A stretch of DNA of 58,819 nt, counting the filler, from Sluysia triapertura (taxonomy: Eukaryota), in assembly GCA_046118255.1 (NCBI GenBank). It is 5 parts of 5 records of this genome, joined end to end, with 100 filler letters (N's around TTAATTAATTAA, not from the genome) between each part and the next. Parts side by side here need not be neighbours in the genome. Positions count along the whole stretch, not along the records: positions 1 to 11,164 come from JBJNIA010188056.1; 4 more parts are not named here. One strand, written 5' to 3'. Below, piece by piece: positions 1 through 54,667 of the stretch. A model generated the notes under the pieces. That model had not been told where the DNA came from. It was given only the letters and a program-made list of their open reading frames with translations, and did not search any database. The first letter of the stretch is position 1. Every line of letters begins with the position of its first letter. The translations under genes were made by a program, and so were the position numbers.

Positions 1-519
1 TGGTTATAATTTGTCTTTAAAGAATAATTTACTTTCTTATAAAGAATAATTTGTATTGTTATTGTTATAAAGAATAAATGGTATTGTCATAATTTATATC
101 TTCTGGTTGTAGTTTTGTGATAATATAACAAATATATCGAGATTTTGAGTTTTTTAGTTATTGAGTTCTAATCTAATAATTTGGGAAAATAAAAGTGATA
201 AAAGACACAGCACATTGATTGAATATGTAAAGGCATTTCTTACTGAATTATAAAAGGATGATGATATGGAGAGAAATTTGGATAAAATTTTGAATTTAGA
301 TTTAAATATGTTTAATGTACAGAGTATGAAACCGAGTGAAGCCAACAATCCTCATCAATATAAAGCAAGAAAATCCACACATTGAAACCAGCGATAAGGA
401 GACAAATACAATTAAAAGAAAGCCTGATCGCCCCAGAAAGAACGAAGAAGATATTTTGATAGCACTGAATACTGTTCGAAAAAACGTTATAGATTTGACA
501 AAAAATAATATACGAAAAT

Positions 520-915
520 GAAGAAGAAATATTAGATTTGGATACAAAAAACATAGTTTATGCGTTTTTATCTAATACGTTACAAAATTCAGTAAATATA
601 AGAAATTATTATCCAAACTAAAGGACTATAGGAATACAATAATAAAACTTATAAAACATTTAGAAGAGAAATATAAGGACAAAGATGTTGGTGATTTTAT
701 AGAGAATGGACAGTATAAATCAATTATTAATAAGAAACTTAGTAAGGGAATAAGCAGAGAAAGATTTAAAATAATTTTAGCTTACACCGTGTTTCAATGT
801 ATTAAAGAAAGGATAACTGATAAGAATAAAATAAATAAGGTTATAGATTTTGTTAATAAGAAAACAAAATTACAGATTGAAGAACAAGGAGGATGGAAAA
901 ATATAATTAAAGGAA
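520..915 (+). pseudogene. Bcl-2-like domain remnant (one frameshift near 575-590)
   Basis: DTKNIVYAFLSNTLQ (541-585) resembles BH4 (Bcl-w DTRALVADFVGYKL). In the open frame 576-1145, LIKHLEEKYKD sits in the BH3 position, KLSKGISRERFKIILAYT aligns to BH1 (ELFRDGVNWGRIVAFFEFG) and IEEQGGWKNII aligns to BH2 (IQDNGGWDAFV). Order and spacing fit; the NWGR motif is degenerate. Confidence 0.55.
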
Positions 916-1049
916 AAGAGAATCAAAAAATTGAAGAAACGTCAAATTTACTTGCAAATTTATTCGGAAACAATGATATGTTAAATACAGCTATACCACG
1001 ATTAGGAAATTCAACAAACAATATGCTCTTCGTGATAAACAACAAAACA

Positions 1050-1985
1050 AAGTCTTTAAAAAAAGTCTTTAGTGTATATCAAGAAGGAAATTTGATAGCA
1101 GCACTGGTTAGAGAATTTATGGTAAAAAGATCAGTGGCGATATAGTATTGTTGTCACCATAGTCATTCATCGATAATAGAATTAAAACCATTTAAGATTC
1201 TGCCCAATAATTGTAGAAATGCCTTCGAAACCGGTTATATAGGATTAGTCAAAGGAGACAAACTAAGAGTGAGAAATAATGAAAAATATTATTTATAATA
1301 TTAGAACTGCCGGAAACGTACTAACAGATAGAACATGCGAACAAGGATCTATAGAATACGAAGGGAAAATATATCACAATGTTGTAGCCCAAGAAACTTT
1401 GTAGTAAGTTTAAAATCTTTAATGAGAGTTTTGATATTGAAAAATGCACAATTATGTCTAGATCATTTTGTAGAATGGACCAAACAAGCTGTAATACAGG
1501 TAAATCCACTTTAACATACGAATTAGATAAGTTCCAGTGTCCTGTAATATTCTTGAAACAAATAAAATTTAATTTAGTATCAGGATTTGTCTAACAGAAT
1601 AATGACAATCAACCAATTGAAGAAATAAAGAAAGAGGAACAAGTAAAGCATTAGATCAAGTAGAAACTCCAACCATTATAATGGCTAGTAAGGAAAAAGA
1701 TGGATTGATTTTCATATCAAAGGGAACGATAATAAAATGCGGAAAAGAAATTATCGAAACCAACTACCAAGGTATTTACCTGTCTGAAAAAATAATATTA
1801 CAAGCCAAAAAAGGAAGAGATTCAAAAAATATAAAATTAAATAGTTATTTCAATAATAAAATAGACTTCTACTACCATCTTGGGTTAATGCCTTTGGAAA
1901 AAATTATCAAATTATGATTGCTCGAGATTATCAGCTGAACAAAGAAATACTACTTACGAAACTGGCAGTGGCCATCATTAATCAC
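1050..1985 (+). pseudogene. Chuvirus-type (class III-like) envelope glycoprotein remnant with stops and frameshifts
   Basis: Ordered motifs across frames: VYQ..VREFMVKRSVAI*YCCHHSHSSII, NCRNAFETG, AGNVLTDRTCEQGSIEYEGKIYHNVVAQ, C..SFC..C..TYE..QC, KCGKEIIETNYQGIYL, NIKLNSYFNNKIDFYYH, QLNKEILLTKLAVAII. These match remembered chuvirus G / retroelement-captured G motifs (YCGMHSH, AG..dG.C..W.NVVVQ, CG...TEHP.L, dl..Y.NsKf.y). Confidence 0.7.
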
Positions 1986-1989
1986 TGAA

Positions 1990-3790
1990 AACCAACTAAC
2001 CAAAGAAGAACAAGGGAAACTTGCAAAACATTTCTCACACTTATCAGGAGTCACAGAAGACGCTACACACATCGTTGGAGTAATGAGAGCTGTATGTGAG
2101 ATAGGACAAAATAAAGTTGAAGTAAAATTAAGAGTAATGAAAAATTGTTATTCAAACAGGACTATCGATGACGATGACGTCTATGTTGACGAACCATTAT
2201 GGTTATTAGGCAGAACCGAATACATAATGCCATCAAAAACAAATAATTCATTAACTGGCCGAATTATGTTCATAGCTTCAGAGAGCAACCAAGAAAAATT
2301 GGATATAGGTATTTCTGATAACTGTGATAACTGTAATAACTGTGAAGGAAAGATAACTGTCGAATTATAAATTATACGAAAGATAATAAATGGTTATTTA
2401 CGGGAACTAAATTAAGGAGGATTGTTAATTACAAAGTACCAACACATATTAACGTAGTAACAAATGCGAAAAATAACACAATAAAGTTACAACGCAATAC
2501 ACAAGAGAAAGATTATGGAAAAATTAAATTAACAACAAAAAGAACAACTATACGAAGTTATATATAGTTATCCTAGAGTAATCTCAAAAACAAATATGAT
2601 ATTGGGGATTCCGTAATTATAAAACACGAAATACCACTAACAGAAGATAGCCATTACGGATGGAATATTAAGATTTAAAAACAATAATGATGAGTGGAAA
2701 ACCATCATTCCAGAATTATTAATTATACCAATATTAATACAGTTCCATGATGGTCAATTATGAGGCCATCTGTCAACAAGGAAAACCTTATCGAGAATTA
2801 AAAGTAAATATTATTGGGAAAACATGGAATCGGATATCAGAAAAAGGGTGAAAGGATTGTTCAATATGTTGTCGACGTAAAAATACTGTCATTGAAACCT
2901 ATGCCAGTACCATTATCCCCAATGGAATTTACCGCTATGAATATTATGGGTCCTCTTCCAGTGACTATCAATGGTAATAAGTATATAATTGTATTCGTGG
3001 ATTATCTGACAAAATGGTCCGAGACTTACCCGATGCCGAATCAAAAAGCCGAAACAGTGGCACAAATATTGGTGGAAAAAATCATTTATAGTTACGGTAA
3101 GGCCTCGCAAATTATTAACAGACCAAGGAACTAACTTTATCAGCGACGTAATCAAATTAGTAGCTAAATTTTTAATATTCTTCGGATTTACACATCACCT
3201 TATCATTCACAAACTGATGGTGTGGTGGAACGCTTTAACAGAACTCTTATTAATATGATTCAATCTTACGTGAATGTTAGACAAACTGACTGGGACTTAT
3301 ATATAGCACCATGTCTTTTTGCATATAGAAGTTATGTACACCCAGCAACTAATTTCACTTCGTTTTATCTAATATACATTTGACGTTCTAACATGCCAGT
3401 AGATTTAGAATTGGTACCACCTACTTCACAGTACTTAGAAATTCCGGAATACGTTACAATAATGAGAGAACAATTACCAGACGCATGGAAATGGGCAGAT
3501 CTTCAAATTAAATATTTTCAAGAAATATATAAAGACACATACGATAAGACAGCCAAAGAACATACTTTTAAAATAGGTGATGAAGTATTGATAGATTATC
3601 CAATAACTAAACCAGGCCAATCACCTAAATTACATAAACCTTTTAAAGGGCCTTATTTAATAACAAAAGTTACTGATACAAATGTGTTCGTTAAAGATCC
3701 TAGTAAAATTAATTCTGAAACTTTTGTAGAACGCGTCAATAGGTGTAAAATTGCACCACAAGAATAATATAACTTAAGAAGTAGAAAAGT
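1990..3790 (+). mobile_element. Ty3/Gypsy pol remnant: partial protease, RT/RNase H deleted, integrase
   Basis: Protease-like LSGVT..IVG..V. Pre-RT motif DIG..IKHEIPLT jumps directly to the integrase zinc finger (FHDGQL*GHLSTRKT..YYW). Integrase core: MGPLPVTINGNKYIIVFVDYLTKW..TDQGTNF..SPYHSQTDGVVERFNRTL. C-terminal FKIGDEVL..KLHKPFKGPY (ORF 3393-3767), then YNLRSRK. Confidence 0.93.
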
Positions 3791-4477
3791 ACAAAAGTCA
3801 AAATTGAGAGTTCAACCAAGACACAAAGACCGAGATAAACCACCTTCAATTCATGCACTATGACATAAACAAGTAATATTCATGATACATTCCCATGGAA
3901 ATGACCTATCTCGTATAATGCAAAATGTACAGTTCAATGGGCGGTACTATTTCAGTAGTTCATAAAAATTTTCTAACTCCTTGGGAGTCAGTGTTTATAA
4001 ACAGACCCCAAGTAATAACATATAGTGTTAATCAAACACAATAAATATCAACGGAACATTACTATGCTACGTAGAAGTAGTAGGACAACACTTACAAGAT
4101 CTAGTAAATGTTTGGGATAGCAGCCCATACGAATTGACATTAGTATGGATGTTATTAATAAATTGGAAGAATGATGATCCACAGCAAATATGGTTTCATA
4201 AAAATACCACCAGGGTCAAATATGATTATACCGCAATTAATAATTCCACAATTCGGTGATGAATTAACCTTATATCAAATACCAATTTCAAATCCGCCAC
4301 TACCGGATATCGTCGATTATACACTTCATTTATCAGATGTATCATGGGGATCACCATCAACAGTCACATCAGAAGAGATTTCGGATTCATCAAGAATTGG
4401 CTCTGAAGTTCTAGATACAGTAATGATAATGACAAATGTAAGAAAAAGATACTGCTTCAGTTAGAGAATATTTTAAG

Positions 4478-5402
4478 AAATTAACTTATTGGGTTTACAT
4501 ATTATTTATAATTTTCCTATCACTAATAACCAACACCATGGCAACAGAAACGGATGAAGAGTACAAAAACATGAATATTGCGATAAATTATGGTGGATAA
4601 ATAATGATTACCGATATTTAACATCAATACTGGAAGTTCGAAATCATTTCTAAGAAAATGATCTTACGACATAAATTTGAAATCTGCTGTATCTATATGA
4701 AAACCACATCATATAAACGGTATTCCACATTGTTTACACTATGGTTATAGACCTGTGTTAATAACTTTCCTTGGATACCCAAAGAAACACACGATATATT
4801 TGGAAATTTAAAGCATTTGGAAAATAGAGAAACAACGGAAGCACCAACAACTTTATCCACTTATAATACAACTAAGAATCAGATAGACAATCCAAACAAC
4901 TCGACTAAACAATCTTATAAATTCTTTATACTAATAATAAAAATCTTATTATACCAATGTTAATTACAATAATTACGGTAGTTCAATGTCATGAGCGTTC
5001 TTTTAAAACCGAACATTTCGAACATTGAAGTAAAGATTAGAATATTGAACCAAAACATTCATGCTAAATTTGCTTGTTTAAAACCTGCCAGACTTAATTT
5101 TAGTTCATGGATAATATATGAAAATTATATTAACGGTGATTTGAAATACCCAGTCACGGTATGTTCAGACATACTACCTATCGAGGATAGACTTATTATT
5201 GTGAAAATTCGTCATTCATTAAAATATTTGCATTTTGAACTTAAAGGAACAAGAAAATACTTAACGATATTGGTTAATATTGCGGAACGATCCGGAATTG
5301 GTAATATTAATAGTAGCAGCAATACTATTTGTAATTGCTCTTGCTATAGTGATATTAATGATTATTATGTTTATATCGAACAAATGTCGATACCCATGTT
5401 GA
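4478..5402 (+). pseudogene. Degenerate type-I membrane protein ORF downstream of integrase (env-like candidate 1)
   Basis: Signal-peptide-like YWVYILFIIFLSLITNTMA at about 4487-4543, a Thr-rich linker, ORF 4991-5479, and a strong TM helix in an alternate frame, ELVILIVAAILFVIALAIVILMIIMFI (5295-5375). Confidence 0.4.
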
Positions 5403-5605
5403 CGCGCATACAGTTCCACATCGAAACACTTACGCTACAAATAATCAAATACTACTTATATACGGAGACTGGCAAATGACTCAAGAAAAATCTACAATCT
5501 TGATATGTATTAATCTATCTTGTATATCAAGTACGTATATCAGTAAACACCATACCTAGAATAATTTTAGTATCTACTCAAAAAGATGTTTATACTAGAA
5601 TATTC

Positions 5606-6424
5606 ATGGATAAAATTAAGTTATTTTCTGTTCAAATAAAATGTTGTATAATGGATTGGCGTGAAACTGAAACAAAGGCAAGTAAACAGGATTTCTACTG
5701 GTTTATAGCCTACATCGATCTTGCTGAATACCAACTAATTAGTGTAACAATAACTATGGAACTGGAGTATGATTCTCGGAGTGACTCAAAAACTATTTTA
5801 ATACGATACTGTAAAATAAGAACTAAGTCATTTATTTTTCAACAATCGCCGACACACAAGGCTAAGACTAAATCAAATGTCTCTAAGAAGTCATCAACAC
5901 TAATTGAATTTCGAATGATCATTTACCGTTATACTGGAAACGTCGTACGCATCCATAACCTACTACACGATAATACATTATTGATTGCCTATGAACTAAT
6001 TGATGGCGTACGTTGTGGACTGATATTGCCAAATGATACTATTCGTTTATATCACCTTCCTGGTAATAAACTAATAAAAGCGGAGATACAAAACATAAAA
6101 GGATTTTGGCCGACAATCAGGTATCATTATGTGCAAATACCTGTTATAGATAAATGCGAAAAGGACTTGATTATAGAACTAGCAAAAAGGCTTAAGATTT
6201 ATAATAATTCGGCAGTTACATCTCGTGTCATGAGCACAAATGCAAGTCTAAAAATTACGAATACTAATAAAAGTTTAAGTAAAATCAATAAGGAATACCC
6301 ATCACTGACTTAATCCAACAATAATTTCATTATAATTGGTAATTATATTTTACTAATAGTTTTACTAGTGACAATAACTATAAATTTTATCATCCTAAAG
6401 TTTTATCTATTTATAATCTATTAA
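5606..6424 (+). pseudogene. Second membrane-anchored ORF of the retroelement 3' region (env-like candidate 2)
   Basis: 235-aa ORF followed, after a frameshift, by IGNYILLIVLLVTITINFIILKFYLFIIY* (about 6335-6424). Same strand as pol. Family not recognised. Confidence 0.4.
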
Positions 6425-6697
6425 AATATAGATTAGGTGTATTGCATAATTGACCATATGTAATAGCTTTACCATTCAGTTTGGGTCATATATGATATTA
6501 AAATTACAAGGATTGTGCAACTGACTGTATGCGATGGTTCGCCAACTTAAAATTTGTATCTACTATTAAATTTAGGATTTTTAAGTTTTAGGTTTTTTAA
6601 TTTAAATTGTTAATATTAATAATTTATAATTAATTATTTCATTCATTTTAATTGAAACTATCTTTTGGAAAATTCATTTTTGATATAAAAAAATTAA

Positions 6698-7175
6698 TCA
6701 AAGAACAAAATCATCTGAATTAGAAAAAAGACAATGAGCAGCATATTCTACAGCAGAAAAATTAGCTTTTTCATTGTTTCTAGCAAGCTCAGATAACCAA
6801 TCAGATTCTGATTTCTGTTTTAACGTAACAATTTTATTAGCTTGTGTAGTTGTTTGAGAATGTTTTGATCGATATAACTTAACAATTTTACGATATTTGG
6901 CAACAACTGGATGAATCCAAGATGATTCGTTGGTAATAAAATTATAAAAGAATGGTTCTGAATCTTCATTCTATAATATTAATAAATACACTTAAGTTAC
7001 AAACCTGAATTATAATTATATAATTTGGAATTTCTTTAACGATGGCTTCTTTAGCTAAAAACATAAGATACTGCTCTGTAGCAGTATTAATTCCCAAATA
7101 TGCCGCAAATTTAAATAAATCGCATTCAGAATACTGATCATCAACAATTTCAGTATAAATAATTGAATTATTCAT
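6698..7175 (-). CDS. Small CEP164 N-terminal-like / WW-domain protein, 2 exons (7175-7005, 6970-6698), 147 aa
   Basis: FAAYLGIN..EQYLMFLAKEAIVKEIP..PFFYNFITNESSWIHP..KYR matches the CEP164 N-terminus (YARYIGIDP..LLWLAREG..P..YYFNF..S.WDHP..YR). A phase-0 GT-AG intron of 34 nt (7004-6971) joins the frames. Confidence 0.75.
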
Positions 7176-10100
7176 ATAAATACTTAATATTATAATAAAT
7201 ATTAATAAACTTCTAAATTAAAATTTAAATTCATGTTGTAGAAATTATAATAAGATTTATACGAATTGAATAAACAAAAATAGACTAAATTTGTAATGTA
7301 CATTGTAAATTGTAAATTTCATTTATTATTTATATATTTGTGAACAAAAATAAAAATACGTTTTGACATTTTATTAATTCAATATTTTGTAAATTGATAG
7401 AAAAAGTATTTCCCTACATGGTAATATTTTTGCCATATCTCTGATGAAGTAAAACCGAACTGTCCAACTAAAAATCGGAGAATATGACTTTTAACTTTGT
7501 CAAACAAAATAATTTAACTATCAATAATTTTACAATAAAATATATTTTACTTAAAAACTTACTGCATTTCGAACAAACTAATAATTATTAGAAAAACCGA
7601 ACTTTCCATGAAATATTTACATTTTCCAACCAATTACATGTTAGATATACTTTATATTTAATGCTAATAAAATTTATGTAAAACGTATTGCAAAAGGTTT
7701 CAAATATGATTTTATGCTTTTTGGGTTGGGTCTTTTAAACTGTCAATCGTAGAAGTAGTAAGGGAAGTATAAGATTTAGGCAAATGCACAAAGACGTATC
7801 TCATAAAATGTGGGTATCGCTGAGATATACATGTGGGCCATCAGACCTTGATTAAATCATCCACTTATTTACTCAACCTAAATCAAAATGCAACCATTAA
7901 GTTGTGAACGGATAATCTGCTAATTCGCTTAAACCATGGACATGGCCTTATTAACACTCGAACAAATTTTGACAATTGTTATTTTGGCTTTTCGAATATC
8001 TGCGATCGACATGCTATGCACTATCGCAGATTAGATATTTAAATACCGGCTTATAACTTCAGAAAGATAATAGAGAAAATAAAAGAATATTTCAGCCGCG
8101 ATTAAGCATTTTGGACCTCAATCACCGCGTTTTATTGGCACTACACTGTAGTAAACATTGATGTGAAAGAATAACGAAAATTATAATAAAACATTTTTTA
8201 GGAAGAATGATGAAAATGAAAATATTCAGAATTTTTAAATAATATTTTAGGCATTAAAAGTACCTTGGAGTTAACAAAAGCCTTATTATCATTAATTCTG
8301 TGATAAAATTAATCGAGTCCGAATCTCAATATATTTTAAAATTTATCATAAAGTAAATACAAAATAATACAGACAATTTTTAGTTCAGTAATAATATAAA
8401 TCAGTCTCTTAATAACAGTCAATAATAATTCGTAAACATAGATGTTAGTGTTGCATCTTCAGTTAAGTTAAATCTAAAATCCTTACTCTATTAATTTTCC
8501 AATATTGATTCCCAAATAAACTTATTATGTTTATTTAAAATTAGTAACAATAACTCGATAATTAAATTGGTTCTAAATTTCGATATATGTTCAGTAATTG
8601 AAAAATAGGTACAATTTATTGATTATTCTCTAACTTCTAGTGTTCACAGAATAAATATAATTCTAATTATTAGTTAAAATGTTTACGAATTCAATTAACA
8701 GGTACAATTATGCCTTAAATCAATTATAAAAATAATTCAATATTAATTTTATTCACTTAAATAAAATCTCAAATGAACTCAATATTCAATATACACATAA
8801 CACACATTTTTTATTTTAATAATGATATATTCAACCCAAAAATTATTTATTATTTTCAAATCAAAAATAACAATTCAATACTATGATAACTACAAAAATC
8901 AAATACAAGAATATGAGTAAAATAACTATAATCAAAAAATCAACAATAGTTCTGTTTATTAACGATATTAAGCATACAATAATATGTCCAAAGAAAAACC
9001 AGAAGTGACGCAACAACATCAATATCTAAAAAGTTGATGATAATAATAATTATTAAATAATTTCGAATAACCTTGTTATACCTTCATAGCAAAAAAGGAT
9101 TTACAAAAAAATGATCCGGAGCCTCCCGAAAATAAAATTATTTAATCACTTAATAAAAATCAAAATTGAAATTAAATTAAATTTGTAACTCAAAATACTT
9201 CAAAAGAATTCGGGCAGGAAGCTTCCCAAAAACTCAAGTTTGACTGACAATAACTTAAAATAAACTGAATATTTCCCCCAAAGTTATTTTCTTAATAAAA
9301 TTTTACTAATGATTAAAATAATAAAATAAATAGTCATGGGTTTTCTTTTTTCTCATTACATTATGCTATGATCGATTGTGTTGTTAATTGTTTAAGTATT
9401 CGCTTTTATATCTCTGTATCGTCCAATCATTCTCCAACTCACAATCAGGAATTTCTCTTACACAAATCATCTAAAACTCTTTTAAAACGACTTTGACATT
9501 TACATGTCAAGCAAAACATAACAATTCGATTAACAATCAACTCTCATTTTTTTCTTCTACTTTGCTCGATCTGTTTTTTCATGAATCACTTCTTACATTA
9601 AAATGACAAATATTATTATTGAAATATTTTAAAATAATGAATTTAACTTCAGTTTTTGCAATTTAATTAATTTTCAATTCCTCACACTCAATTTTTTAAT
9701 GGAAAATGTTTAAGGTTATCATTCCCAAACAAATCATTTCACAAACATTTCAACTTCATTTTCGGATTCTCCTTTTTCATAGGAACCACTCCATACCTAA
9801 TTCATCATTTTTCCATAATTCTAAATATGAAAATGCATCATATTTTAATTAAAAATTAATAAAAATTCGACTTTGTTCAATATGGAAGCTATCTTCGCAT
9901 GAACTTTGTCAAACCTTAACGTCATCGGAAGGTCTCTTTAAAACACATGCATACACAATTACAGTTTTAACATAGCATTTCTCACTCAAAAGTTTTTTTT
10001 AATTAAGTTAATTAAGATTTTAATTAATTTAACTTATTTTATTCCACGTTTAAAGTTTTAGTATGGTTATAAAATTGTTAAATAAATACTCAGGAGGTTC

Positions 10101-11164
10101 TAGATGTTTTCACCTTCACCACTCTGATTCCTTTTTCTACTTTTTTATTTCAGTTATTAATGTATTAAATTTATATTTAATATTATTAAGCAAGATTGTA
10201 ATTCTTGAATATTTCAAAGGTTCCAAACATTTTACAAGGTTACTCGAAAGTATCATGAGTTTATTAAGGTCTCAAACCTCTTGAAATATTCCAAAAGATC
10301 ACAAGGTAACAAATGATCGCAAGGTTTAGAAGATCAAAGACATCTTCATACCTCAAGACATCTTTCCAAACCTTACTTAAGTCTTCACAAGGGTCTCAAT
10401 ACAAAGGTCTTTTGAACTTCAAGGTGTTGTTCGGTTTCAAAATGATTATAAACATTTTATTGTTCTGTTGGGATTAATGAAAGGTGTAAAGAAGTACATA
10501 ATTCTATATTTTGTATTTTATATTTTTAAAGTTTTGTATTTATGTAATTTTTAAAAAATATTATAAAAATCATTAAAATTTATATATTTTAAAAAATTAT
10601 TAATTTAATTATAGTAAAATTATTATTATTATTATAATTTCAAAAAAAATCTAAAAAGAAACTTCTAGAAAGAAGTTTATTTAAATGTATTAAATTTTAA
10701 AATATGTCTTTATGATTATATAAAGACAGTGACAAATAAAGAAAACTCCATTGGTAAAATTTTGGAAGCCATAATTAAAAAGTCAATTTCATTTTTCAAG
10801 TCGCCATATTTGTGAAACAATGAAGCTATTTCGCCATTTGGTATACAACAACAAAATCGCATTGGTGCAAATTGATTATAGTGGTATTGGATTGCTCTTC
10901 GTCAGAAATTCTGTCAAATTTCAATTTTTAAATCAAGAAGATTAAATTGTGTCCCGCGTCTACGATTAGAGGGAACGATTTTCAACAACACAATTAATTT
11001 CAAGCAGAAGAAATATTTATCCAGCTTCCATATTTGTTAATTAATCGTAAGTTTAATTTACATAGGTTTTTAACTTTCTGAAGAGTGATAAATTACACTT
11101 AAAATATCCTTTTTCACGGTTGGTCATTAAGGCCAATCACAAAATCTATTTTAAAATATAAAAT

Positions 11165-11264
11165 NNNNNNNNNNNNNNNNNNNNNNNNNNNNNNNNNNNN
11201 NNNNNNNNTTAATTAATTAANNNNNNNNNNNNNNNNNNNNNNNNNNNNNNNNNNNNNNNNNNNN
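11165..11264. other. Assembly gap, N44-TTAATTAATTAA-N44 (same design at 22374-22473, 34371-34470, 45293-45392; plain gaps at 28418-28550 and 45040-45170)
   Basis: Identical 100-bp layout four times; the linker gives stops in all six frames. Confidence 0.95.
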
Positions 11265-11804
11265 ACCTTAAGCGCTTTTGAGTACTTTCGCGGTAGATAT
11301 GAGCGCAATATAAATTAATATATTATTATTATTATTATTATATTAATGCAGGCCAGGTCTTGAAAATAATTAAAATAATTTTTTCGTTAAAAATTAATAT
11401 TTACCTAAAATAATTAAATTTTAAAAATTAACTTACTAAAAATAATTCTTTTATTGCTAAAAATAATTTTCTTTATTAATTTGAAATTACTTTTTAAAAA
11501 TAAATAATTTATTTTATTTAAACAAATTTATTTTAATTTTATTTGTATATTTCTTATTTAATTTTAATTTATAATTTAATTAATTATAATAATAATAATA
11601 TTTATAAAATAACATAAACAAATATAAAAAGACATAAATATAAAAACATAGATCAAAAACATTTACATCTTTACAATTTATTATAATCCCATTTAAAATT
11701 TTTATGTTTGTATTTACCAGTTGTATCTTTTATATTTTATTAAAAAATTAATTTAATAAGCATTTATTTTAATATTTGTTTTAAAATCTGTTTATAGAAG
11801 AAAA

Positions 11805-11910
11805 GGTTCAGTTTAAGAACCAAATTAAAATATCCACATTATTACTAAAGGTTCGGTTTAAGAACCTCATTAAAATCATCTTTTGGTTCAAAGTAAGAAC
11901 CATATTAAAA
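11805..11910. repeat. Three direct copies of a short palindrome GGTTC-N7-GAACC
   Basis: ggttcagtttaagaacc (11805), ggttcggtttaagaacc (11850), ggttcaaagtaagaacc (11885), each followed within 2 nt by attaaaat. Confidence 0.8.
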
Positions 11911-12277
11911 TATTATTACAGCTAATTTTTAAAATAAATTTTCATTTAGAATATATTAAGACGCGAGAGATTTTTAAGTATTACACCTCCAGTTACTTTA
12001 ACTAACTTTATACACAAAATCCAACGGCTGGCCCTAACCGGTAAGTCCAGTACGTTGGTGAACTCACTTTAACTTTACTTTATTCTGACACACTTCACAC
12101 TTTTCTTACAATCTAAACAGTGCATTCACGATTGATGTTATACATTTGGAGTCGTTAAATGTAACGGAACATAAACAGGAATGACATGGATTAGTTATTA
12201 GGAATGAGAGGAATTAAAGTCGTTGTCAAAAAATGTCTTTAAAATGTTATTTAAATTCAAAACCCTACAATAAGTTA

Positions 12278-12708
12278 CTAACCGCTTTCATCACTTTCAA
12301 ATATATGAAATAATTTTAATGATTTATCTTCACTGTCAGGTAAAACATTGTTACCATTTATTTCTGATGTAAATGGAATAAATTTCATATTTTCAATATT
12401 AGTTTGTGTTGTCAATACATTTCGATAATCTGGATTTTGCGTAAAACTCGAAAATCGGCAAGGCACTTTTTTCGTTATTGTATTCATTGGTTGAAATGAC
12501 TTTTCGCTACTTGGTTCTTCAATAATTGAGAAGTTTGTAAACCTATCTGCTAAAATTCCATCATTTTGTTCTGATTGATTTTTATATGTTTTAATATTAG
12601 GCTTAGGACTAGATGTCATAAAACTAGTTTTTTTAGGACTGTTACTAAATGATTGCCATACTACATCGGATTTGAACTGTGTTTGTACAGCTTTATCAAG
12701 CGGTTCTA
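12278..12708 (-). CDS. Probable terminal exon, low-complexity Ser/Thr/Asn-rich unknown protein
   Basis: Frame stays open upstream of the 113-aa ORF to a ttttaatttag acceptor near 12709; composition is coding-like. Confidence 0.35.
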
Positions 12709-13229
12709 CTAAATTAAAATATATTTGGATTTTGTAATAAAATGAAGTTGTAAATAAATATTAAAAATTTATCAAAATATATAAAGCTTACAAGATCTAA
12801 ATAAATAAATTAGAATAATAATCAGTTATATTTGCAAATATCTTTCATCAATATTCGAATTAGAAATTATATACGTATTGTAGAATTGAATGATTTTTAC
12901 TATTTAAAGATTTTAGTTTAAAATTAAATGTGTTGATAAATTAATTCTTTCATTTTATTTATTTTTGATATTATTAAACATTGAGAAGTTATAAATTCTC
13001 TGGCGTTACTACTTAAATTTGATTTTATATTACAATGAATCACGAAGTAAAATATCTTAACATAAATTTTATTAGGATAAACAAAAAATTTAAGATTTGA
13101 ATTTAAATTTTGTTTTTCTTTAATGTTTTCCCGAGCATATTTCGTTTTCGATCTTCCATAGGTACTAAAGAAAATAAAAGGATATAATTGATCAGCAAGA
13201 ATAATAATGATATTAATAACATGCAAAAA

Positions 13230-14790
13230 TTGTAATTACTTTTAAGTAATGTTCGTAGACGAAGTAAACTGGAAAAACCACAGAGAATAACATTGATGAA
13301 GTGTTCGTAGTAAGATAACTTCTGAACAGACCTGTGTCCGTGATTGCGTGAACTAGTCGAGGATTGAGCCGAGTTATAGAATCGATTAATAGATTACACT
13401 TGATTGACTGTTCTTGACTTGACATTAACACTTTAGCATTGAATGGCTGCTGCGCTTGATTTGTTGGTTCCGAATTATTGTCTTTATTTGATCGTTTCCG
13501 AAGATCATTTCGCCATTTCACAAAAAAATCTATCAAGGCGTATGTAACTTGAGTGTTTTCTTCTTTACTAAAAACTTCGTCCCAACGTCTAGTTAATTCT
13601 TTATTTAACTTGTTTGGAGATATCACTAGTAAGGATTGAGAATATCAACCAGAACTGTCGTCATTTTTATGGATATACTGAATGACTTTTCAAATTATCT
13701 GTTCTTGAACAGCATTCTTACATACGAACAATTAACAACTAAGTATGCTGTTATGGCTAACACTAAAGCTAACTCGAATTTCTCATTCTGTGAATAAGCT
13801 TGAACTAATTGTAATCTTGAAGTATCAACTAAACAGCATGTTTTATTATTGTCTGACAACACACATCCGATCACGATAACGACAAATACAATCGTAATTA
13901 TCGTCTGAACTTAAAGTTTGCATGAGTATTGATGGTGAAGCCATGCGTATTTCGATACGTTTATTTAAAATAGCTCGTAGGAATAGAGGATGATATATGG
14001 TTCGTGATGGTGAAGAGAACCATTTCAAAGTTCCATCATTCGATACACTAACAATTTTATCTATAAATTCAACAGGTTCATAGAATTTAATGCCAAGAAA
14101 TTCTGACGTTAGGAAGACTAAAGGTTTTACCAACATTGGCTTTTACCAACATTACATAAAAATTAGTTATTCAATATCGAAATGTAAACAAAAAAATGTT
14201 CAGTTCGTGCTCTAATAAAAACAAGATCATGAAATAATTCAATGCATTGATGTGAATATTAAATTCGAAAATCAAAATGATATTCCTTTTTATGCGGCCT
14301 TTATACGAATAATAAATAATAATAATTTTGCAATAATTGTTTTTGGTTAACTTCAATATAGTTGATCATTGACTGTGGTAGTATATTATTAAATGGTTGT
14401 TTCTGAATGAAGTTTCTCATCGGTGTATTACAAGATAATTTCTTTATGTTATCAATGTTAGAAATGATTCCGTAATCACTTATCTCACTTATAAATACTT
14501 TTTCGTCACTAAAAACAAGAAAACATTGAACATCATCTATCACCGGCGCTAGAAGAATATGTTTCTTATAAAAATCTTTGAGCACAAAATAAAAATCTGA
14601 AACAACTTTTTTCTCATAATTTTCTGGTCTTGATGATAAATTACTAATTACATTACGTGAAATAGGATACACTTTATATTCAGCAACACCTTCAAAATTA
14701 TATGACATTTCAAATGTGTTTAATAAATTTACTCAAGTGATCAGCTTTTTTAACTTCTGTCTGCATTTTACTAATTATGCCAATGCTTAT
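13230..14790 (-). pseudogene. VPS39: VPS39/Vam6-like pseudogene (CNH domain plus following region)
   Basis: KDFYKKHILLAPVIDDVQCFLVFSDEKVF ~ KNFSKKIQQIHVVSQFKILVSLLENNIY. TLKWFSSP..HPLFLRAILNKRIEIRMASPSILMQTL ~ LNWTDIP..QPPYIIAVLPRYVEIRTFEPRLLVQSI. QNEKFELALVLA ~ QDKQFELALQLA. YALIDFFVKWRNDL ~ LALIDYLTQKRSQL. Multiple stops and frameshifts. Confidence 0.8.
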
Positions 14791-14818
14791 TTTTAGATTT
14801 GTTTTTACTCTGTCTATG

Positions 14819-15760
14819 TTGATTGGACGTCCAATCAATTGCTGTATTAACATTACGAGTTTATATGTGATTTAAAATAAAGATATCGCTGAGAGGCACA
14901 CTAATAACCGTCATCAGTCAGCAGTTTAAAAGTTATATAGACTGAATTATAGTAGCTAACAAGAAAATTAGCTAATTGAATAAAGTAAAATAACAATAAT
15001 AATAATGTTACTATTATTATTAAAATTATAAAGTACATAAATCTTTTGCTTCTATATAACAAGATCTTTCTTTTTAGCTTCTTATTTTCTTGACATAAAT
15101 GAATAACATTGCATAAATAATATTCTCTTTTATCTATGTTGTCTTATATTTATCTAGATAAATTTTGCAACACAAGTTTCGAATCTCGTTACTCTTGGAA
15201 AGGAATTTATCAAGTAATTAACAAAGTGTGGATTATAGAAAATGTTTAGGGAAATGATTACTAGTTAAACTGTTTGAGAAATGCTATTTTGTTTGCAATG
15301 TCTAGAATTGGTTTCAGAGTATTAATGGTATTAGAGATTATAAACTTGAAATGTTTTGAATTAAATTTTGAGATGTAAATTTAATAATTTGAAATGTAAT
15401 TGTGATTCTAATGTTAAAAGATAATGAATGAAATGTTTTAAATGCATTTTTTAAATGTAAATTAGTGGTTTTAACTGAAGATACGGTATAGATCTTGAAA
15501 ACTTGTGAACGTAAGTGTTTTGAGGTATATAGATCTGGAAGAAATAGAATATGAAAAGATTTAGATGGAAAACTAGTTGAAATGTTATGGAATGTGTTGA
15601 ATTATTTTTTTAATGTTTCGATTAATTTTTTGAAGTAATGTGTGATCTAAATGCTATGTAATTTTGTCTAAAGCGTTTGAAAATAAAAAAAATTCGTGAA
15701 ATATTGTGAAGGGCGATTTTGTAAATAAAATTTGTTAAAAGTTATAGGTTTGCCACCATA
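14819..15760. repeat. Dispersed ~0.9-kb repeat, copy A, headed by a 20-bp palindrome TTGATTGGACGTCCAATCAA
   Basis: Alignable by eye with 51513-52320 and 54431-55395, e.g. ttgaaatgttttgaatt..gatgta..tgtaattgtg..taatgtta.aagataatgaa, and tatagt.gctaacaa. Confidence 0.8.
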
Positions 15761-18700
15761 TCAATTAAGTGCAAATCCTTGATTTTGGAATCGAAAACTA
15801 CGCTGGTGAAACAAGTTAGATGTGGAATTCACTCAGATAAATCAAGAATATCTAATAACTTCTATTTTTTCGATTTTGAAAAAATAATATTGAAGCAAAG
15901 CTTTATTTATGTTTAATTTTGAGTAATCTTGATCAATCTTAATATATTCAACTCTTTATTAAGCACAATAGAATTCAGGAATAAATTTTAAAAATTTCGT
16001 CAAATAAAATCATAACTTTGTCAAATCTACATTTTTAACAATTCATTGACCAATATTTTTCACTTTCTTTCTAACAATAATGTATTCACTTTGTAACAAT
16101 CCTTTAACAATATTTAATAACATGTCTCACATCTTTCTAAATCTGTAATATTGTTTTTATTTTATTTTCTTGAAAAATAAATAATATTTCCTAGGGATTT
16201 TCATGAATAGAATAACATGAAGTTTGATCTGTAACTGAGTTCTTTGGCACTCTAGCAATCGAGTTTGTTGTCTTTAAAATCTAAACCTTCTGTACCATCG
16301 CTATATCATTTTTACCTTGGTATTATCAAAGCTCCTAACTTCATGAATAATTCTACTGGAACAAAACAAATATTACATTTTTTAATCTTCATTTTAAAAA
16401 AATTCAAATAATTTAGCAATCGAAAGTTCATAAAAAATATAGAATTAAATACTAATGTTATAATAGGTTGATTATTGGTTTCATATGAAAATAAATGATA
16501 TATTTATTTATTTACATTTCTAAAAACGACATTACACCTTGAAATAATAATTAATTATTTATTTTTTGATTAGAAAAGCAATACTCGCTAGTTTTTTAAT
16601 TTTTAAGTATTAAAAATTAATTATTAATTATTAATTTTTTAAATTATTTTGTTACTTTGAATATATAATTATGAGATATTAAAATTATTATAGTTTTAAG
16701 TCTTTATTGTTTTTAAAATAAGCTAAAAAACGGTAATAATTTCGTTGTTAAAGTTTGTTTAATTTAATTCAAATGGATTATTATCAAGGTTCTGTAAGTG
16801 ACTTCAAACACTAACAAAAATACGCTTAATGATCATTTAATAATTTTTGTTTTCTACAACAATAAACAATAATTTAACATCGATAATATAAATAAATAGA
16901 ATTGGTTATAATATAAGTTAGTCTTCCGAATTTTTTATTTCAACATCTCAAAACAACTTTTAATCTAAATTAAAAAGTTTAGAGTAATTTTACAACTTTA
17001 AAAATTCACGAATTAGTTTAATAAATTAATTAAGAATACAAAATTGAATTTCACGAGCTGTCAAAATTAGTCCATATTTAATTCACTATATGTAATATCT
17101 TTCAAATAAGTTCCATAAGGAATAATATATTGCAAGTAATAATAAGCTTTCCAAATAAAATCGGTGTCGTTGTATATCATATTAAGGTTCTTAAGAGCAT
17201 ACAAAATAATTTACTATTAATCTTATTCAGAATGACTTATTCAGTATGAATTCTTCTATCAAGTCAGGATATAAAATTAAATTTTTATTAAAAATAAAAA
17301 TTAATGTGTATTTTTAAGAAAGAGTGACTTTAACAATTAATCAAGGCCCACCGAAACAGTTCTAAATCTAGTCATGTATCTTGGACAAAATAAATGAATT
17401 TAAAAGGATTTGTTAAGTTTTATCCATTAGATAAATAATTAACCACAAATGTTATACAGATTGCGTCCAGTAAACAATGAAAAGTGCTAAAAAATAAAAT
17501 TATTTCTATATTAACGTCTCTAAATTTTTTCTAGCAGCATAGAATAAATGTTGTTTTATTTATATATGAATACATTTCAAATTATATCCTGATTTATTTT
17601 GTCTTACTTCGGAATGTAATAAATAATTTATTGTTTTCAATTAACTCCGATAATCATAAACCTTTTTCAATTTATAATTTACTTATCTTTTCTCAAAACA
17701 ATTAATATAAAACAAGTAAAACAAGAAAATAATTTTCTTTAAATATTATATAATAAATAGTTAAATTTAAATTTAAATATAATAAATTTAGAATAACTTA
17801 CTTAATTTTTTCTTCTCCATCCCCGAATATTTAATAAATACATCATGTATGTAATATTTTATAAACTTTTGTTTTAATTTAAGAAATAAATCTAATTACA
17901 AAACAAGATATAACGTCCGTTTTGAAATTTATGTATTTTACATATACTCAGTACCATATTATTTTTGTATTTTTTACTACAACTCTACTAGTACTATAAC
18001 TACATTTTTTTACTATATTTTTTAAATGATTTAAAAATTCAATTAATTAAATTTATTCTACAATTTATGTAATTAATTACTTTATATTTTAATAATTGTA
18101 ATAAATTTAGTTTAAAATTAAAAATAGTTTAAAATTAATTTAATTTAACTTTCTTTTTTGCTTAGAGCATTTTATTTTTTTATTATTTTTCAGCTATATT
18201 GTTGTCTTTGTTAAGGTTTTGGAAATAATTTGATTTTGTTTAAGATTAAATTTTAAATAATTTTTTTAGTTTAAAAGTTTTATTTTATTTTGATTTAATC
18301 TTAATTTCTAATATATTTTATTCATTTCCGAATTCCTTTAAATAATGTAATTATATATTTGCGAAATTCGGTGACATTTATTTCAGCATTATATATTCGT
18401 TTGACTTCATAATATTAACCTTGCCATTATATCTCCAAATTCAATTATCATTGGTCACAAGCCTACCAAAAGGCTTATTCGAGATATAGTCTCACCAATT
18501 ATTAAATTTTATAAAATTAACTGATTCGAATTGCCGACCTCTTGACATGCAGCCACATGATTAATCCTTTAAGAAGTTATCAGCATTATTTAATAATTTG
18601 TTTTTATTACATTAAATTGTACTTTAATTTTTAAATAGCATTTTTATCCTATTCAATTTCCTACAGAATTTAATATATAATCAAAAAATAAATCAAATTT

Positions 18701-21489
18701 TCTACATAATTATTTTCCATGTAATACTTAGTAAATAACTGAAAACTATAATTATTATATATTTTCTGTTAACGTTTACATTTGCAATATTATGTAGACT
18801 GATTGTTATATATTTTTATTAAAACATAAAACCAAAATTTACTAAGAAAAACTACAATTAGTATATTAAAGGTTTTTTTAATAATTTTGTGAATTGCATT
18901 AAAGGTATTAGTAATTTTTTAGGCAATGATTAATAAACGAGTACATGTAATTCATAATAGCGTTTAAATTCATATTTAACATTTATGTTCAGGTTTTAAA
19001 TTATTTAAAAATCGATCTCACCGATATAAAGAACATTACGCATAATTATAAAATAACAACTCTTTCATTTGTATTCAAACAACATAAATAACACTTTATT
19101 TATGTAAAAGACTAACAAATCACGATTAAAAAATAGTGGTTCGGGATAACAGATATCCTGACTCTGCTCTTTGCGTAACTAACAAACATAATAAGCCTTT
19201 CTGGCATTAGTAATAACTTTTGGTGGACGAATGCCCACTTTTCTTAATCCATTAATGGTTTTATACATTTCAAAATTAAATTCGTTAACTTTTTGTCGAG
19301 ATTTCATCATCTATGGTAAAACGCTTATTGAATTCAATGAGCTTTATGAATACAATTTTTGAAACATTATGAATTGTATTACAAAATGAACATATGGTGA
19401 TCTTAAAAAACTTTCTTAACTTCAAACGAGCCAAATTAATGTCAATTAAATTAACAAAAGTCTTTATTGACAATATCTAACTTTACTTTCTTTTCGACAT
19501 TTTCTAACTTCTGCTTTTCAACAACATAAAACTAATAAAGATTTATTTTATCGTATATTTGCACAACAAAAAGAATGCTGTTATTCATAAAACTATTAAT
19601 TTTTAAATTTCATTATTGTGCTGTAAGGCACCAATATTAAAATAACGTAAAATATAATTTATGTATTTCAAACTATAATAATTAATATATTTCATTAAAT
19701 AAAATATATAATTTTTTGTTCTTTATATATTTATTATTTTTCTCATACATATAAAATATATTATAATCTAATTTTCATCTGTGAAATAATTCGAAATTCA
19801 AAATTCCAATAAAGTAATAAAACGTTCATTAAGACGTTGAAACAATGTCAAATCGAACACTAGTGTGCTTCTTTTAGGCCTCATAAGCGTAAAATTTCTA
19901 TTAATATCAAAATATTTTGTATCATTTTCCAGTTATATTATTGTAATATAAAAATTATATAAACTATTGCTTATTGACTATAATTTCAAAGCATTAGCGT
20001 CTTGTATCAGCACTTCACATTCTTTGTTATTCTGATTATGACTAGTTTCATTGATTCATCATTTTTTATATTATCTTTCTCGATGTTCCTTAAAGGGAAT
20101 CAACCAGGTGTACAGTAATTGGTGGGTCAGAAACACATTCTTTATAATAAGGTTCTATATTACATTCGGCACTATTTTGGTGATTCCAATTGTCTGACTA
20201 GAATCTGGGTTTTCTGAAGCTTCCCTGACAGTAGTTCCTATCCTTCTAAGTTAGAACTAACTTGTTGCCTATTATTACAGTTCGAATCTCTATTGATTCC
20301 AATTCAGTTTCTTTGGCTGAAACATTTGTAAACTCTATTTCTTCATTTAATCTATTCACATTCATCTTCATTAGCTTCTCAATCATTCTTTGTAAAAAAA
20401 TTTATCATCGTATCTAATGTCTCTTGCAGTATTAAATAAAAGACGTTTCAGAATCAACAAATTATGTCCTGATGTTATGTTATCTTTAAATACATCACAA
20501 TCAATTTCCTTTTGAATAATCTTAAAAAATACACAATTCTGCCATAAAAAACTTGAACTATATTAATAGTATTGATAAAGGTTTGAGTTATTTATTAGAT
20601 ATATTTTATGAATTATATTAGATGTTTTGCGGGTAAATATATAAGATTAAGAAAGTAATGTAAAAGTTATGTAGATGTAGATGTTTGGTATGTTTGATGT
20701 ACGTTTAAAATCATAAATTAACATTACATAATTTATTCGGTATAATCAAATGTAAAAAGTAGATGAAATACTCTGTGAATTGTCTAATAATATTAAAATA
20801 TGTTTCTAAATAATAAAACGCAAATGTTTAATTATCTTCATGATTAATTAATTAGTCGGTTTAACTATTTTGAAGACATGATTGTAACAAATTTTATTAG
20901 GATCATTTATATTATAATAAATAAAGTATCAGAATCATTATTTAACATTTCTATTTGCAAGAACAAATATTTATAATTTGAATATTTTTCATATATATTA
21001 ACACTAAACGTGATGGTATGAATAGGTGTACATCTAACCTTGATACATTTAGTGTTAATCTACAATAACTCTATTATGTTTAGTTTGTAATTTATTCCGT
21101 TACATTATTACATTATGTAAATTAAAATCTTAGTCTGAGTAAAAAAGACTGAATAAATAAATAGTATTTATGTAAATCTTTTACTGATAATATTAATTCA
21201 TATAAAAATATGTCATTTGAGCAAAATTGCACCAATATAATATTGAACACATCTTATACAAAATCTTAGATGTGTGACTTATGTTGAAACAAAAACTGGA
21301 CAATCTTAAAAGTACCATAACGAAAGAAAATTAGCAAAAACATATACGAAAACAAACATTTTTCAATGACTGACACAGAAATATTGAATATGAAATATTT
21401 CATTCTCAAACTGTCAAGATTCTTATGAATACCGATCTTCTTTAGAGGATCATGACTATTTTATAAGTTTGGTAATAACATCATGCTAA

Positions 21490-23825: not shown

Positions 23826-25138
23826 TGCATGATGATTTTATTACACAATGTATTAACACCGATGTAAAATTAATGCTGTTTTCAACGTATGTCTCAACTG
23901 GTGTTTTATATCATTCTATGATGATAATCGAAACGAGATAAAAAGATAAAGAATTTTCTTTGATATTACGAACTAGTGATAGTGTAAAGATTGTTAATGA
24001 TTATACTATGATGTTGAGAACTGAAGATTTTAAAGCGTACAGTTTGTTCTTATTAAAGATGTTATCTGAAGAAATAAACAATCTAATATTATCTTTAAAT
24101 AAAGTCATTAATAGCTACAAGATGGATGATTTGTATTCATTTGTGTTTAAATCAACTCTCAATATTAATATAAACTGTTGGAATCTAATTGAACTAAAAC
24201 GTGAATTCTTAAATTCCCTAGTATCAGAAAAATGGGCCCACCTTCCAAAATCGTTATGGTCTAATAATTACAATCATGGTAAATATGTTATGATTCCATT
24301 TAGTGCTAGTTATGAAGATAATTTTATATCACCCAGAATGCATGTTAATAATCGTTTTTTAGTTTTAGCGTATTATCATGAAAGAAATGGGTCTAGTTTA
24401 ATTCGATGTAGTCAATATTCAAACGTGACATTAAAAATGAGTTTCATTGATCCGATAACTAAACTATTGCGACATCAATATGAATTTATGAAATTAAGAA
24501 TAACAACCGCTCTAATTAAAACTCCAATATTAGAGAGTAAACCATTCAAGAACAATGATTGCGTAATTGATATAGTGAGAAATATGCAGACAGACCTTCG
24601 CAAGTTAGTTGAGGTCGAAGATGATGACCACTACATTAATGTATCCAATCAGAATATATGTCGATATTTATTACGAGTAGCCTCCAGTAACTGGCACGTC
24701 CGAATACTAAACCTAATTCTAGTTAGTCAAATTTTAGTTCAATCGATTTTGAGTCATCCTGGTATGACCTACGTATTGATGAGTGAAACAAGATATGATT
24801 ACGAACTGATTTTGTCAAGTATTGTACAATTAATTTCACTACCAGATACTACAACTACACAACGAAGTCATCAATATATCTTGTCATTACGGAAAGACAC
24901 AGGTACAGTCGCAAACAATTTTTATGAATATTTATGTAATTTCAATTCTGTTAGTTTTAAATTGATTTGTTTGTCTAATTACTTTTTAGTTATTCAAAGA
25001 AATTACTGGATGGTGAAATACTGGCGAGTAGGATATGAAGATCGTTATGATGCAGTTGTTGATAATTTTCAAATTTTTCAAACTAGGGAAATAAAATTTT
25101 ATGTTCAAAAATTTTATTTGTTTAATAATAAATCTTAA
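23826..25138 (+). CDS. Myotubularin-related pseudophosphatase (inactive MTMR-like); may be a pseudogene
   Basis: NNRFLVLAYYHERNGSSLIRCSQ ~ RNRIPVLSY.H.NGA.L.RCSQP. SSNWHVRILNLI. YVLMSETRYDYELILSSIVQLISLP replaces HCSDGWDRT..SLAQLLLDP, so there is no CX5R. Frameshift between ATG 23826 and the 392-aa ORF; downstream conserved blocks look deleted. Confidence 0.75.
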
Positions 25139-45280: not shown

Positions 45281-45873
45281 TTTTACGAAGTCNNNNNNNN
45301 NNNNNNNNNNNNNNNNNNNNNNNNNNNNNNNNNNNNTTAATTAATTAANNNNNNNNNNNNNNNNNNNNNNNNNNNNNNNNNNNNNNNNNNNNGGACTTCC
45401 GTAATGTAAGCATTTGTAAATTATTGTCATAATTTTAAATTCTATTCTTGCTTTTATTGGCAACCAATGCAATTCTTTGAGATAGGGTGTTATATGAGAT
45501 CTTCTTCCAACTTGGAGGATTAGTCTTGCTGCTTGATAAATTATAAGACTGGAAATAATGTTTAAGTAATGTTTAAATAAATAATATTGAAATACAATGT
45601 AATAATGTGTGCTATAAATTATATTATTTTATCAAAAATAAATCTTCAAGAAAAAATTGAACAGGAATCACTTATACATTTATTGTTTAAATAAGTACAT
45701 ATATATTTATATAATAATTTTTATTTTTTCTTTTCATTTATATTGTATAAAAATAAATTGTTTGCAATTCAAAAATAATTCATAATTTAGTACGTCATTT
45801 GTTCTATTGTTTATTTCAAAATTTATTTTAAACTAATTCACAATTAATAAGTTTTCAATTAATTAGCCATATT

Positions 45874-52320: not shown

Positions 52321-52399
52321 TAAATGAACAATGTAAAAATATGATTTGAATAGCTATTTGAATCTCAAGTTATGGGTTAAAAAATTCTGGATACTGATA

Positions 52400-52640
52400 A
52401 ATCACAATAGCTTCAACTTTTTATTTCATTACAATGAAGGTCAGAGTTGACAGACTCTTCATCAGGAATCAATTCGAAGTGAATTATACTTCAAATTCTA
52501 CGAAATGCAAATCAAGAGAGTTTTTCAAATATACCTTTTTAAACTTCGGGTTGACCAATCTAGCCTTTACCTAACCATTCATTTTTAGTTCCTTTGTTAC
52601 GATAATACCTCATTGCGTCATTGGGATATTGCATTTTCTC
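52400..52640 (-). mobile_element. mariner transposase central remnant
   Basis: YYRNKGTKNEWLGKG..IIHFELIPDEESVNSDLHCNEI ~ YYDN..RK.W..GE..GIIHFELLP.G.TVNSD.YC.QL. Confidence 0.7.

Positions 52641-54634: not shown

Positions 54635-54667
<33 letters not shown>

Follow-up and report, generated by a model that had tools for sequence, protein, structure and literature searches.

Positions 520-3860 of the window (the whole 58,819-nt stretch of Sluysia triapertura DNA analysed here, filler included) very probably contain what is left of a Burro-like Ty3/gypsy retroelement, a copy that is dead and has suffered internal deletions; the Bcl-2-like domain of such elements would likely serve to block death or stress signalling in the host. 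The copy is a fossil: having lost the signal, half of the envelope glycoprotein (G), the reverse transcriptase (RT) and RNase H, it is incapable on its own of the functions proposed below. The combination of a Bcl-2-like domain with an envelope has been in print since 2018-2019 and is not a new kind of system. What is added here is support for the fold, a non-canonical BH1 motif, fast divergence, a patchy presence among relatives and a putative ER anchor provided by the Env signal.

A Bcl-2-like reading frame in the window

An open stretch of 189 aa in frame +3 spans 576-1145. Its translation contains a BH1-like motif at positions 744-785 and a BH2-like motif at 876-908, in agreement with the preliminary description of this DNA. 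The segment 576-917 (plus strand) is assigned to a Bcl-2-like domain comprising predicted helices 2-8, with a non-canonical BH1 and a GGW-type BH2; the assignment draws on a leave-out profile, on tblastn and on the fold of a relative, L003. When the window was scanned with the profile, positions 639-914 ranked first among 1177 six-frame pieces (E 2.3e-8, against E 0.47 for the runner-up), scoring 32.8 bits against no more than 11.5 in the 997 reported of 1000 shuffles and 3.2 for the reversed sequence. The tblastn matches of the window domain are to L003 917-986 (E 9e-4) and P0002 10-87 (E 0.006).

The alignment termed A2 comprises the domain of six relatives and that of the window, with boundaries set by eye. 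The profile used to score the window was built from the six relatives, realigned with the window left out.

Taken alone, the window peptide finds no Bcl-2 in Pfam, in PDB sequences or in the Atlas, and a word-indexed homologue search with 576-1142 gave nothing among 110 candidates of near length. A single-sequence model of 576-935 had a pLDDT of 49 and a fold search with it returned no clear match, the best one (Z 6.2) being the TetR-like protein HrtR, with Bak at rank 5. Thus, the Bcl-2 fold suggested in the preliminary description could not be read from the window's own model, but it was found in L003, to which the profile ties the window. We tested whether the Bcl-2 frame had been selectively retained here and reject the idea, since an open run of 567 nt is expected by chance (P 0.71-0.93 from decay alone, with 11-15 estimated breaks in 3250 nt).

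Two less certain features lie upstream. A BH4-like helix piece at 517-600 (plus strand; motif at 541-582) had been described as separated from the domain by a frameshift; it is indeed seen in the translation of frame +1, but the profile of the relatives does not match it, and we list it as tentative. The L003 domain model has a helix at 3-19. An ORF at 330-521 (plus strand) with an AT-hook-like basic motif may be a remnant of an upstream linker, possibly the polar linker preceding the Bcl-2-like domain. RGRP motifs resembling that of this segment occur in L003 and P0008; its alignment to the relatives is not significant (best E 0.09). No match to a ubiquitin-like domain was found in positions 1-620, the window beginning inside the repeat.

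Intact relatives carry the domain ahead of the envelope

A search of 1.84 billion representatives with the 576-1292 peptide, an X being placed at its one stop, identified two proteins, P0002 (E 5.6e-9) and P0003 (E 6.6e-6). Both were found through their G part, yet in both a Bcl-2-like domain precedes G. Further searches yielded P0004-P0016 and four metagenome loci, L001-L004, the first three of which come from one assembly and are 42-56% different in G. No relatives were found among viral contigs. No usable match came from the Atlas, whether searched with the window domain or with residues 28-166 of P0006, and P0006 matched no Bcl-2 in PDB sequences or Pfam.

In the intact relatives, a Gag with a CCHC motif is followed by a ubiquitin-like domain, the Bcl-2-like domain, a polar linker, a hydrophobic signal, G and a membrane anchor; beyond the anchor come one or more proteases, RT, RNase H, integrase, a second signal and a second membrane protein. 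A one-ORF architecture is seen in L001, L002, P0007, P0008, P0010 and P0013, and the succession from Gag to G to protease can be followed within one ORF in L002, L004, P0007 and P0008. For example, the 3703-aa ORF of L002 runs from a CCHC Gag through ubiquitin-like domain(s), Bcl-2-like domain, signal and G to proteases, RT, RNase H, integrase and a second membrane protein, with hydrophobic segments at 1202-1220, 1768-1786, 3305-3323 and 3591-3609. A ubiquitin-like domain lies upstream of the Bcl-2-like domain in L003 (E 4.4e-5) as well as in L002, and whole relatives match PF24664 with E values of 1e-50 to 1e-90. According to Pfam, P0013 (3003 aa) and P0010 (4844 aa) have the gypsy order PR-RT-RNase H-IN; P0010 also contains ankyrin repeats, C2H2 domains and up to 7 aspartyl-protease stretches. 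These data bear out the proposal that the window holds a decayed retroelement with an envelope, the intact relatives of which encode a Bcl-2/Env polyprotein. The outcome named in advance as refuting it, a G that elsewhere is never linked to the domain, did not occur, since the two are linked in 6 of the 14 relative sequences scanned.

The six positive relatives are the same six that built the profile; P0011, P0012 and P0014-P0016 were outside the scan.

Several additional features were observed in the relatives. P0008 has four aspartyl-protease Pfam stretches in one polyprotein. In L001, L002, L004 and P0013, the C-terminal 300-450 aa form a second signal and membrane-anchored protein after the integrase, in the same ORF, for which no convincing Pfam family was found; L001 has an extra block of signal and membrane anchor between its proteases. 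Separate ORFs in L001 (10617-12107) and L002 (12085-13473) encode a DEDD-type exonuclease (RNase_T, E 1.4e-5 and 0.0011), and near them, downstream of the polyprotein, lies a coiled-coil-looking ORF, in an order that differs between the two loci; neither type of ORF is present in the window. Finally, a small conserved helical domain precedes the ubiquitin-like domain in L003 (1693-1950) and L002 (2440-2700) and, by eye, in P0007, P0008 and P0013. A TFIIS-N-like identity, guessed by eye for this domain, had no Pfam support.

Fold and BH motifs of the domain

At the N-terminus of P0002 and P0003, Pfam Bcl-2 is matched with E values of 0.00096 and 0.2, respectively, and in L003 with an E value of 0.025, all below the curated cut-off. 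Comparison of P0002 with PDB sequences gave Bcl-xL or Bcl-2 in all of the 60 best of 85 matches. With the A2 profile, two designed helical repeats ranked first, followed by Bcl-2/Bcl-xL (E 0.002-0.02). The domain of L003 was modelled with a pLDDT of 77.5 and a pTM of 0.73 and has seven helices. In a fold search with this model (VIA, 48,161 chains), ranks 1 to 35 are all occupied by cellular or viral Bcl-2-fold proteins, beginning with KsBcl-2 (Z 9.8, rmsd 3.0, 120 aligned) and including Hydra Bcl-2-4 (Z 9.2) and GIV66 (Z 9.0); the first unrelated row has a Z of 5.4, bearing in mind that Z values below 13 can be generic for helical folds. Identity in these structural alignments ranges between 9% and 19%. 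With Foldseek, 43 of 43 among the matches listed belong to the Bcl-2 family, the best having an E value of 4.2e-3; there was no match at E 0.001 or better, viral library included. In the viral library most names near the top are viral Bcl-2 proteins, weakly matched. The third of these is the Bcl2 of a lancelet adintovirus (E 0.06), another integrating mobile element with a Bcl-2 cargo.

Leave-one-out profiles placed each of the seven rows (7/7) above its own shuffles, L002 by the smallest margin (16.9 vs 10.8). Altogether, on the models and profiles the Bcl-2 fold is well supported for the family and, via the profile, for the window. The cellular and viral proteins compared (Bcl-xL, Mcl-1, KsBcl-2, GIV66, A179L, F1L, N1L, A52) share with the domain the same predicted helical fold of about 120 residues. 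The domain differs from them by the missing NWGR, by its setting in a retroelement polyprotein and by the tail anchor, which the Env signal would replace.

The BH motifs are unevenly preserved. At BH2, GGW is found in six of the seven domains and the tryptophan in all seven. At BH1, the WG of NWGR is kept in none of the seven, with K or R at the R position in five. Since NWGR is missing, the window domain is called Bcl-2-like rather than canonical Bcl-2. The BH1 glycine is required for BH3 binding, and poxvirus proteins of the A46/A52/B14 type act on immune adaptors. We take N1L, A52, B14 and A46 to be Bcl-2-fold proteins. It is quite possible, although not the reading we favour, that the domain acts like A46, A52 or B14, on innate-immune or autophagy adaptors or on ER stress during Env synthesis, and not on apoptosis. 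The loss of both W and G from BH1 in all seven domains, against a canonical motif in Bcl-xL, speaks for such a role, as does a divergence much faster than that of G. On the other hand, the best structural matches (KsBcl-2, Hydra Bcl-2-4, GIV66 and Mcl-1; Z 9.0-9.8) are BH3-binding pro-survival proteins, even if a fold shows no function, and A52, B14 and A46 rank lower (Z 5.4-6.6). Furthermore, Burro1 already uses an anti-apoptotic module, according to a second-hand statement in the available part of PMC13465017.

The glycoprotein and its junction with the domain

Positions 1050-1982 (plus strand) encode the middle portion of an envelope glycoprotein of the chuvirus/gB type (class III), recognized by tblastn with L001-L004 and P0002-P0013 (E down to 3e-34). 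Against the intact relatives, this region falls into four pieces spread over three frames, with stops and frameshifts. PF24664 matches two of the pieces weakly (E 0.0034 and 0.0075). The C-terminal half of G and the membrane anchor are absent from the window.

Between the domain and G, positions 918-1049 (plus strand) correspond to a shortened linker. Near 1038 it lacks both the segment for the Env signal and the beginning of the G ectodomain: there is no hydrophobic segment or Cys in frame, and the hydrophobic signal and first cysteine motif of G are absent from the window in all three frames. The peak hydrophobicity of the linker (KD15) is 0.47 in the window against 1.1-3.1 in the relatives, and the distance from GGW to VYQE is 62 aa instead of the 86-126 aa of the six relatives. 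In sequencing run X1, 33 contigs leave the window sequence at 1038. The frame had been described as continuing into the start of the glycoprotein. It is in frame with G, but the true G start is not entered, since the signal and the first cysteine motif are absent.

A deletion between the domain and G, together with a window peptide that by itself matches no Bcl-2 in Pfam or PDB, is what one would see if a host Bcl-2 pseudogene, or an unrelated helical sequence, had been deleted onto a chuvirus-derived glycoprotein by chance. We find this barely credible. The intact relatives hold both parts in one frame, residues 51-260 of P0003 align unbroken to window 690-1241 across the junction (E 5e-12), and the domain region is covered by contigs as deeply as G and integrase. 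The linkage of the Bcl-2-like domain to G is not a chance fusion, because the intact relatives share the domain before G, the profile picks out the window frame and L003 folds as Bcl-2.

pol remnants, decay and abundance of the element

Gypsy pol had been noted beside the domain, and a Ty3/gypsy integrase is indeed present at 2629-3860 (plus strand), with H2C2 zinc finger, core and C-terminal domain interrupted by stops and frameshifts. It matches PF17921 (Integrase_H2C2) with an E value of 1.3e-13, rve weakly, and the relatives in tblastn with E values down to 7e-99. Over 2740-3860, identity is 50-54% to L001, L002, P0010 and P0013, 37% to L004 and 27% to the insect sequence P0009. The plus-strand segment 1984-2160 is probably the C-terminal half of an aspartyl protease, without the catalytic motif; it was recognized by eye and by position, with no blastp or Pfam support. 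A post-protease domain at 2164-2450 (plus strand) occupies the position of Burro's dUTPase-like motif (2164-2316 aligns to residues 2251-2301 of L002, E 0.005); Pfam dUTPase matches neither the window nor L002. Alignment also places a pre-RT segment at 2496-2651 (plus strand), with RT and RNase H deleted directly behind it. Positions 2586-2651 align to P0013 1665-1685 (E 6e-4) and L002 2383-2404, and positions 2629-2760 align about 500 aa further on in the relatives. RT and RNase H are gone, since the pre-RT match passes at once into pre-integrase sequence.

Because G lies upstream of pol, the region is the middle of an element, with large deletions, and not the 3' part that the preliminary description had taken it for. 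The parallel then drawn with BEL/Pao elements (Anakin) did not hold either: in P0010 and P0013, the RT, RNase H and H2C2 integrase recognized by Pfam are of gypsy type, with no Pao family appearing at E 1 or better, which makes the element a Ty3/gypsy one.

Downstream, decayed ORFs of up to 269 aa (3900-6313, plus strand), in a less deeply covered part of the repeat, are possibly a 3' accessory region. They match neither the relatives (post-integrase membrane protein included) nor Pfam or PDB. A MATH domain, guessed by eye in 5504-6313, received no support in the searches. No BIR or MATH family was found at E 1 or better in the window pieces and relatives scanned, several of the relatives being 5'-truncated. 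No direct repeat of at least 40 nt that could represent an LTR was found in L001, L002 and L004 (contigs of 4-17 kb) or in window 1-7000.

Summed contig depth in run X1 is 30,557-148,653 over positions 1-3900, 523-19,151 over 3901-6300 and 26-51 over 6901-8100. This depth is flat per contig and is not a copy number. The run also includes the host DNA that flanks the element, identical over 1694 nt, and may be the source of the window itself.

In view of the excess of depth over 1-3900 relative to 6901-8100, the element is a highly abundant repeat; in this one run it is covered roughly three orders of magnitude more deeply than the neighbouring host gene. Coverage remains high over the large deletion points near 1985 and 2650, neither of which has a loose end among the 6 listed of 2034. 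One could thus envisage that the deleted form is a non-autonomous, high-copy subfamily with Bcl-2-like and integrase sequence, mobilised in trans. This we consider unlikely: a depth that is flat per contig shows no bridging of the junctions, 1038 and 2148 are points where many contigs part from the window, so at least those deletions are not common to all copies, and the stops and frameshifts in 520-3770 of the window copy number about 13-15.

Relationship to Burro and other envelope-bearing elements

The accessible text of Arkhipova and Yushenova (2019, PMC6431247) describes planarian Burro elements as having Gag, a Ubi2/SUMO-like domain, a BCL2-like motif, env between BCL2 and protease, and a dUTPase-like motif between protease and RT. 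The Burro env gives matches to mononegavirus fusion glycoproteins. That text names Grohme et al. 2018 as the source for the BCL2-like motif of Burro-2, -3 and -4 and notes decaying Burro fragments in Dugesia japonica. The combination that the preliminary description had regarded as new is therefore the published Burro layout (PMC6431247, in the part available). Comparison with descriptions of Burro/GYPSM1, rather than with Burro sequences, indicates that the intact relatives have the same polyprotein order; env between gag and pol, BCL2-like directly before env, and very high copy are features also found in the window or relatives. The described Burro ORF1 (4873 aa) is similar in length to that of the ankyrin-bearing relative P0010 (4844 aa); most intact relatives, at about 3000-3700 aa, fall short of this, and Burro, as described, exceeds 30 kb with long LTRs. 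Burro1 has BIR and MATH, neither of which is seen in the window or relatives. Because BIR and MATH were not seen, the window copy is filed as Burro-like rather than Burro1.

Chary and Hayashi (eLife 2026, PMC13524379), in the portion accessible, report gypsy elements of GAG-ENV-POL order whose Env is of the gB type, from Nematoda, Bryozoa and Platyhelminthes. The Platyhelminthes C1a errantiviruses among them resemble the relatives in having Env between gag and pol and a gB/chuvirus-like envelope. Ectodomain motifs common to the window can be seen by eye in the Env of Smed_errantivirus_1-6, and the C1a size of about 14.5-18 kb fits the L001 and L002 contigs. Bcl-2 does not figure there: in the main text and seven supplements, as available, "bcl" and "apoptosis" have 0 occurrences. 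Anakin, a BEL/Pao element described by Dezordi et al. (2020, PMC7642597, available in part; see also PMC10084718), is likewise a retroelement with a chuvirus-like G (PF24664). Compared with Anakin as described there, pol here is Ty3/gypsy and G lies upstream of it. In the insect gypsy sequence P0009, G lies downstream of the integrase and is 19-23% identical to that of the Burro-like group.

Distribution and divergence of the domain

Absence of the domain is informative where a sequence reaches upstream of the domain's place, as in P0007, P0008, P0013 and L004. The remaining absences are uninformative: P0005 begins within G, P0004 and P0010 only a short way ahead of it, and P0009 is the insect sequence with G after pol. 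Since it is missing in P0007, P0008, P0013 and L004, the domain is dispensable. In a G tree of 12 rows, L002, whose domain is degenerate, and P0013, which has none, are sisters (support 97/96), with G 77% identical; the contrast points to loss or exchange of the domain. Since just 2 of the 9 inner branches of this mostly unresolved tree are starred, we relied on those two pairs alone.

Pairwise identities show that the Bcl-2-like domain diverges faster than G: 45% vs 78% for L001/P0002, 31% vs 54% for P0003/L003 and 17% vs 58% for L001/L002. Fast divergence, the L002/P0013 pair and a 567-nt open run that matches decay alone would all be consistent with a passenger captured once, now decaying and functionless. 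Yet the domain sits in frame and in the same place in six elements that differ by 22-66% in G, its BH2 tryptophan is invariant, and it still folds as Bcl-2 in the L003 model. We thus judge a passenger role to be quite improbable and the weaker of the two rivals to an anti-death function; an immune-adaptor role is the strong one, because BH1 is altered.

A possible mode of action

We envisage that an intact polyprotein would be threaded through the ER membrane. On general membrane-protein topology, the Gag, ubiquitin-like and Bcl-2-like parts would stay in the cytosol, the internal Env signal would direct G to the lumen of the ER, and the anchor of G would bring pol back to the cytosol, a topology with which the hydrophobic segments of the relatives fit. 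Signal peptidase and the element's own protease could then cut the chain. In six relatives a hydrophobic peak lies 27-64 aa after BH2; with this arrangement the Bcl-2-like domain would stay membrane-anchored like cellular Bcl-2, remaining on the cytosolic face of the ER with the Env signal as a stand-in for the cellular tail anchor. Held there, it might engage factors of the host's death or innate-immune pathways, probably by a route other than a canonical NWGR groove. Most likely, the domain would dampen death signalling in the element-producing cell.

In a fuller version of this scheme, which as a whole we hold to be doubtful, Burro-like elements would carry a functional Bcl-2-fold protein that evolves fast, is freed from the Gag-Env-Pol polyprotein and is held in the ER membrane by the Env signal peptide acting as tail anchor. 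It would occupy a cargo slot between Gag and Env whose content can be exchanged, and the present genome might represent either a deleted subfamily of high copy number or a host beyond those planarian families from which Burro is known. If true, the Bcl-2-fold protein would be a second host-protecting module beside the BIR domain of Burro1. That an anti-apoptotic BIR/RING module of Burro1 protects planarian stem cells is relayed second-hand by a Hydra paper (PMC13465017, available in part), and the role of the BCL2-like motif is the question touched here. No functional test of this motif was found in the literature searched, most subscription papers being outside its reach. The intact relatives offer natural, foldable domains for such a test, with altered BH1, fast divergence and repeated loss.

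Surrounding host DNA

The window is AT-rich eukaryotic DNA (GC 20-33%). Starting at about 6.7 kb, it contains host genes with introns. Exons of a WW-domain gene, presumably CEP164-like, are found at 6698-7217 on the minus strand (E 3e-4), ending close to the end of the repeat. At 23942-25138, a single ORF of 398 aa contains a divergent myotubularin-like domain (E 1.2e-8). Two plus-strand ORFs of 239 and 157 aa at 45832-47190 match no convincing Pfam family. A diverged direct repeat with a spacing of 2867 nt occupies 51898-55280, and a related fragment is present at 15341-15508.
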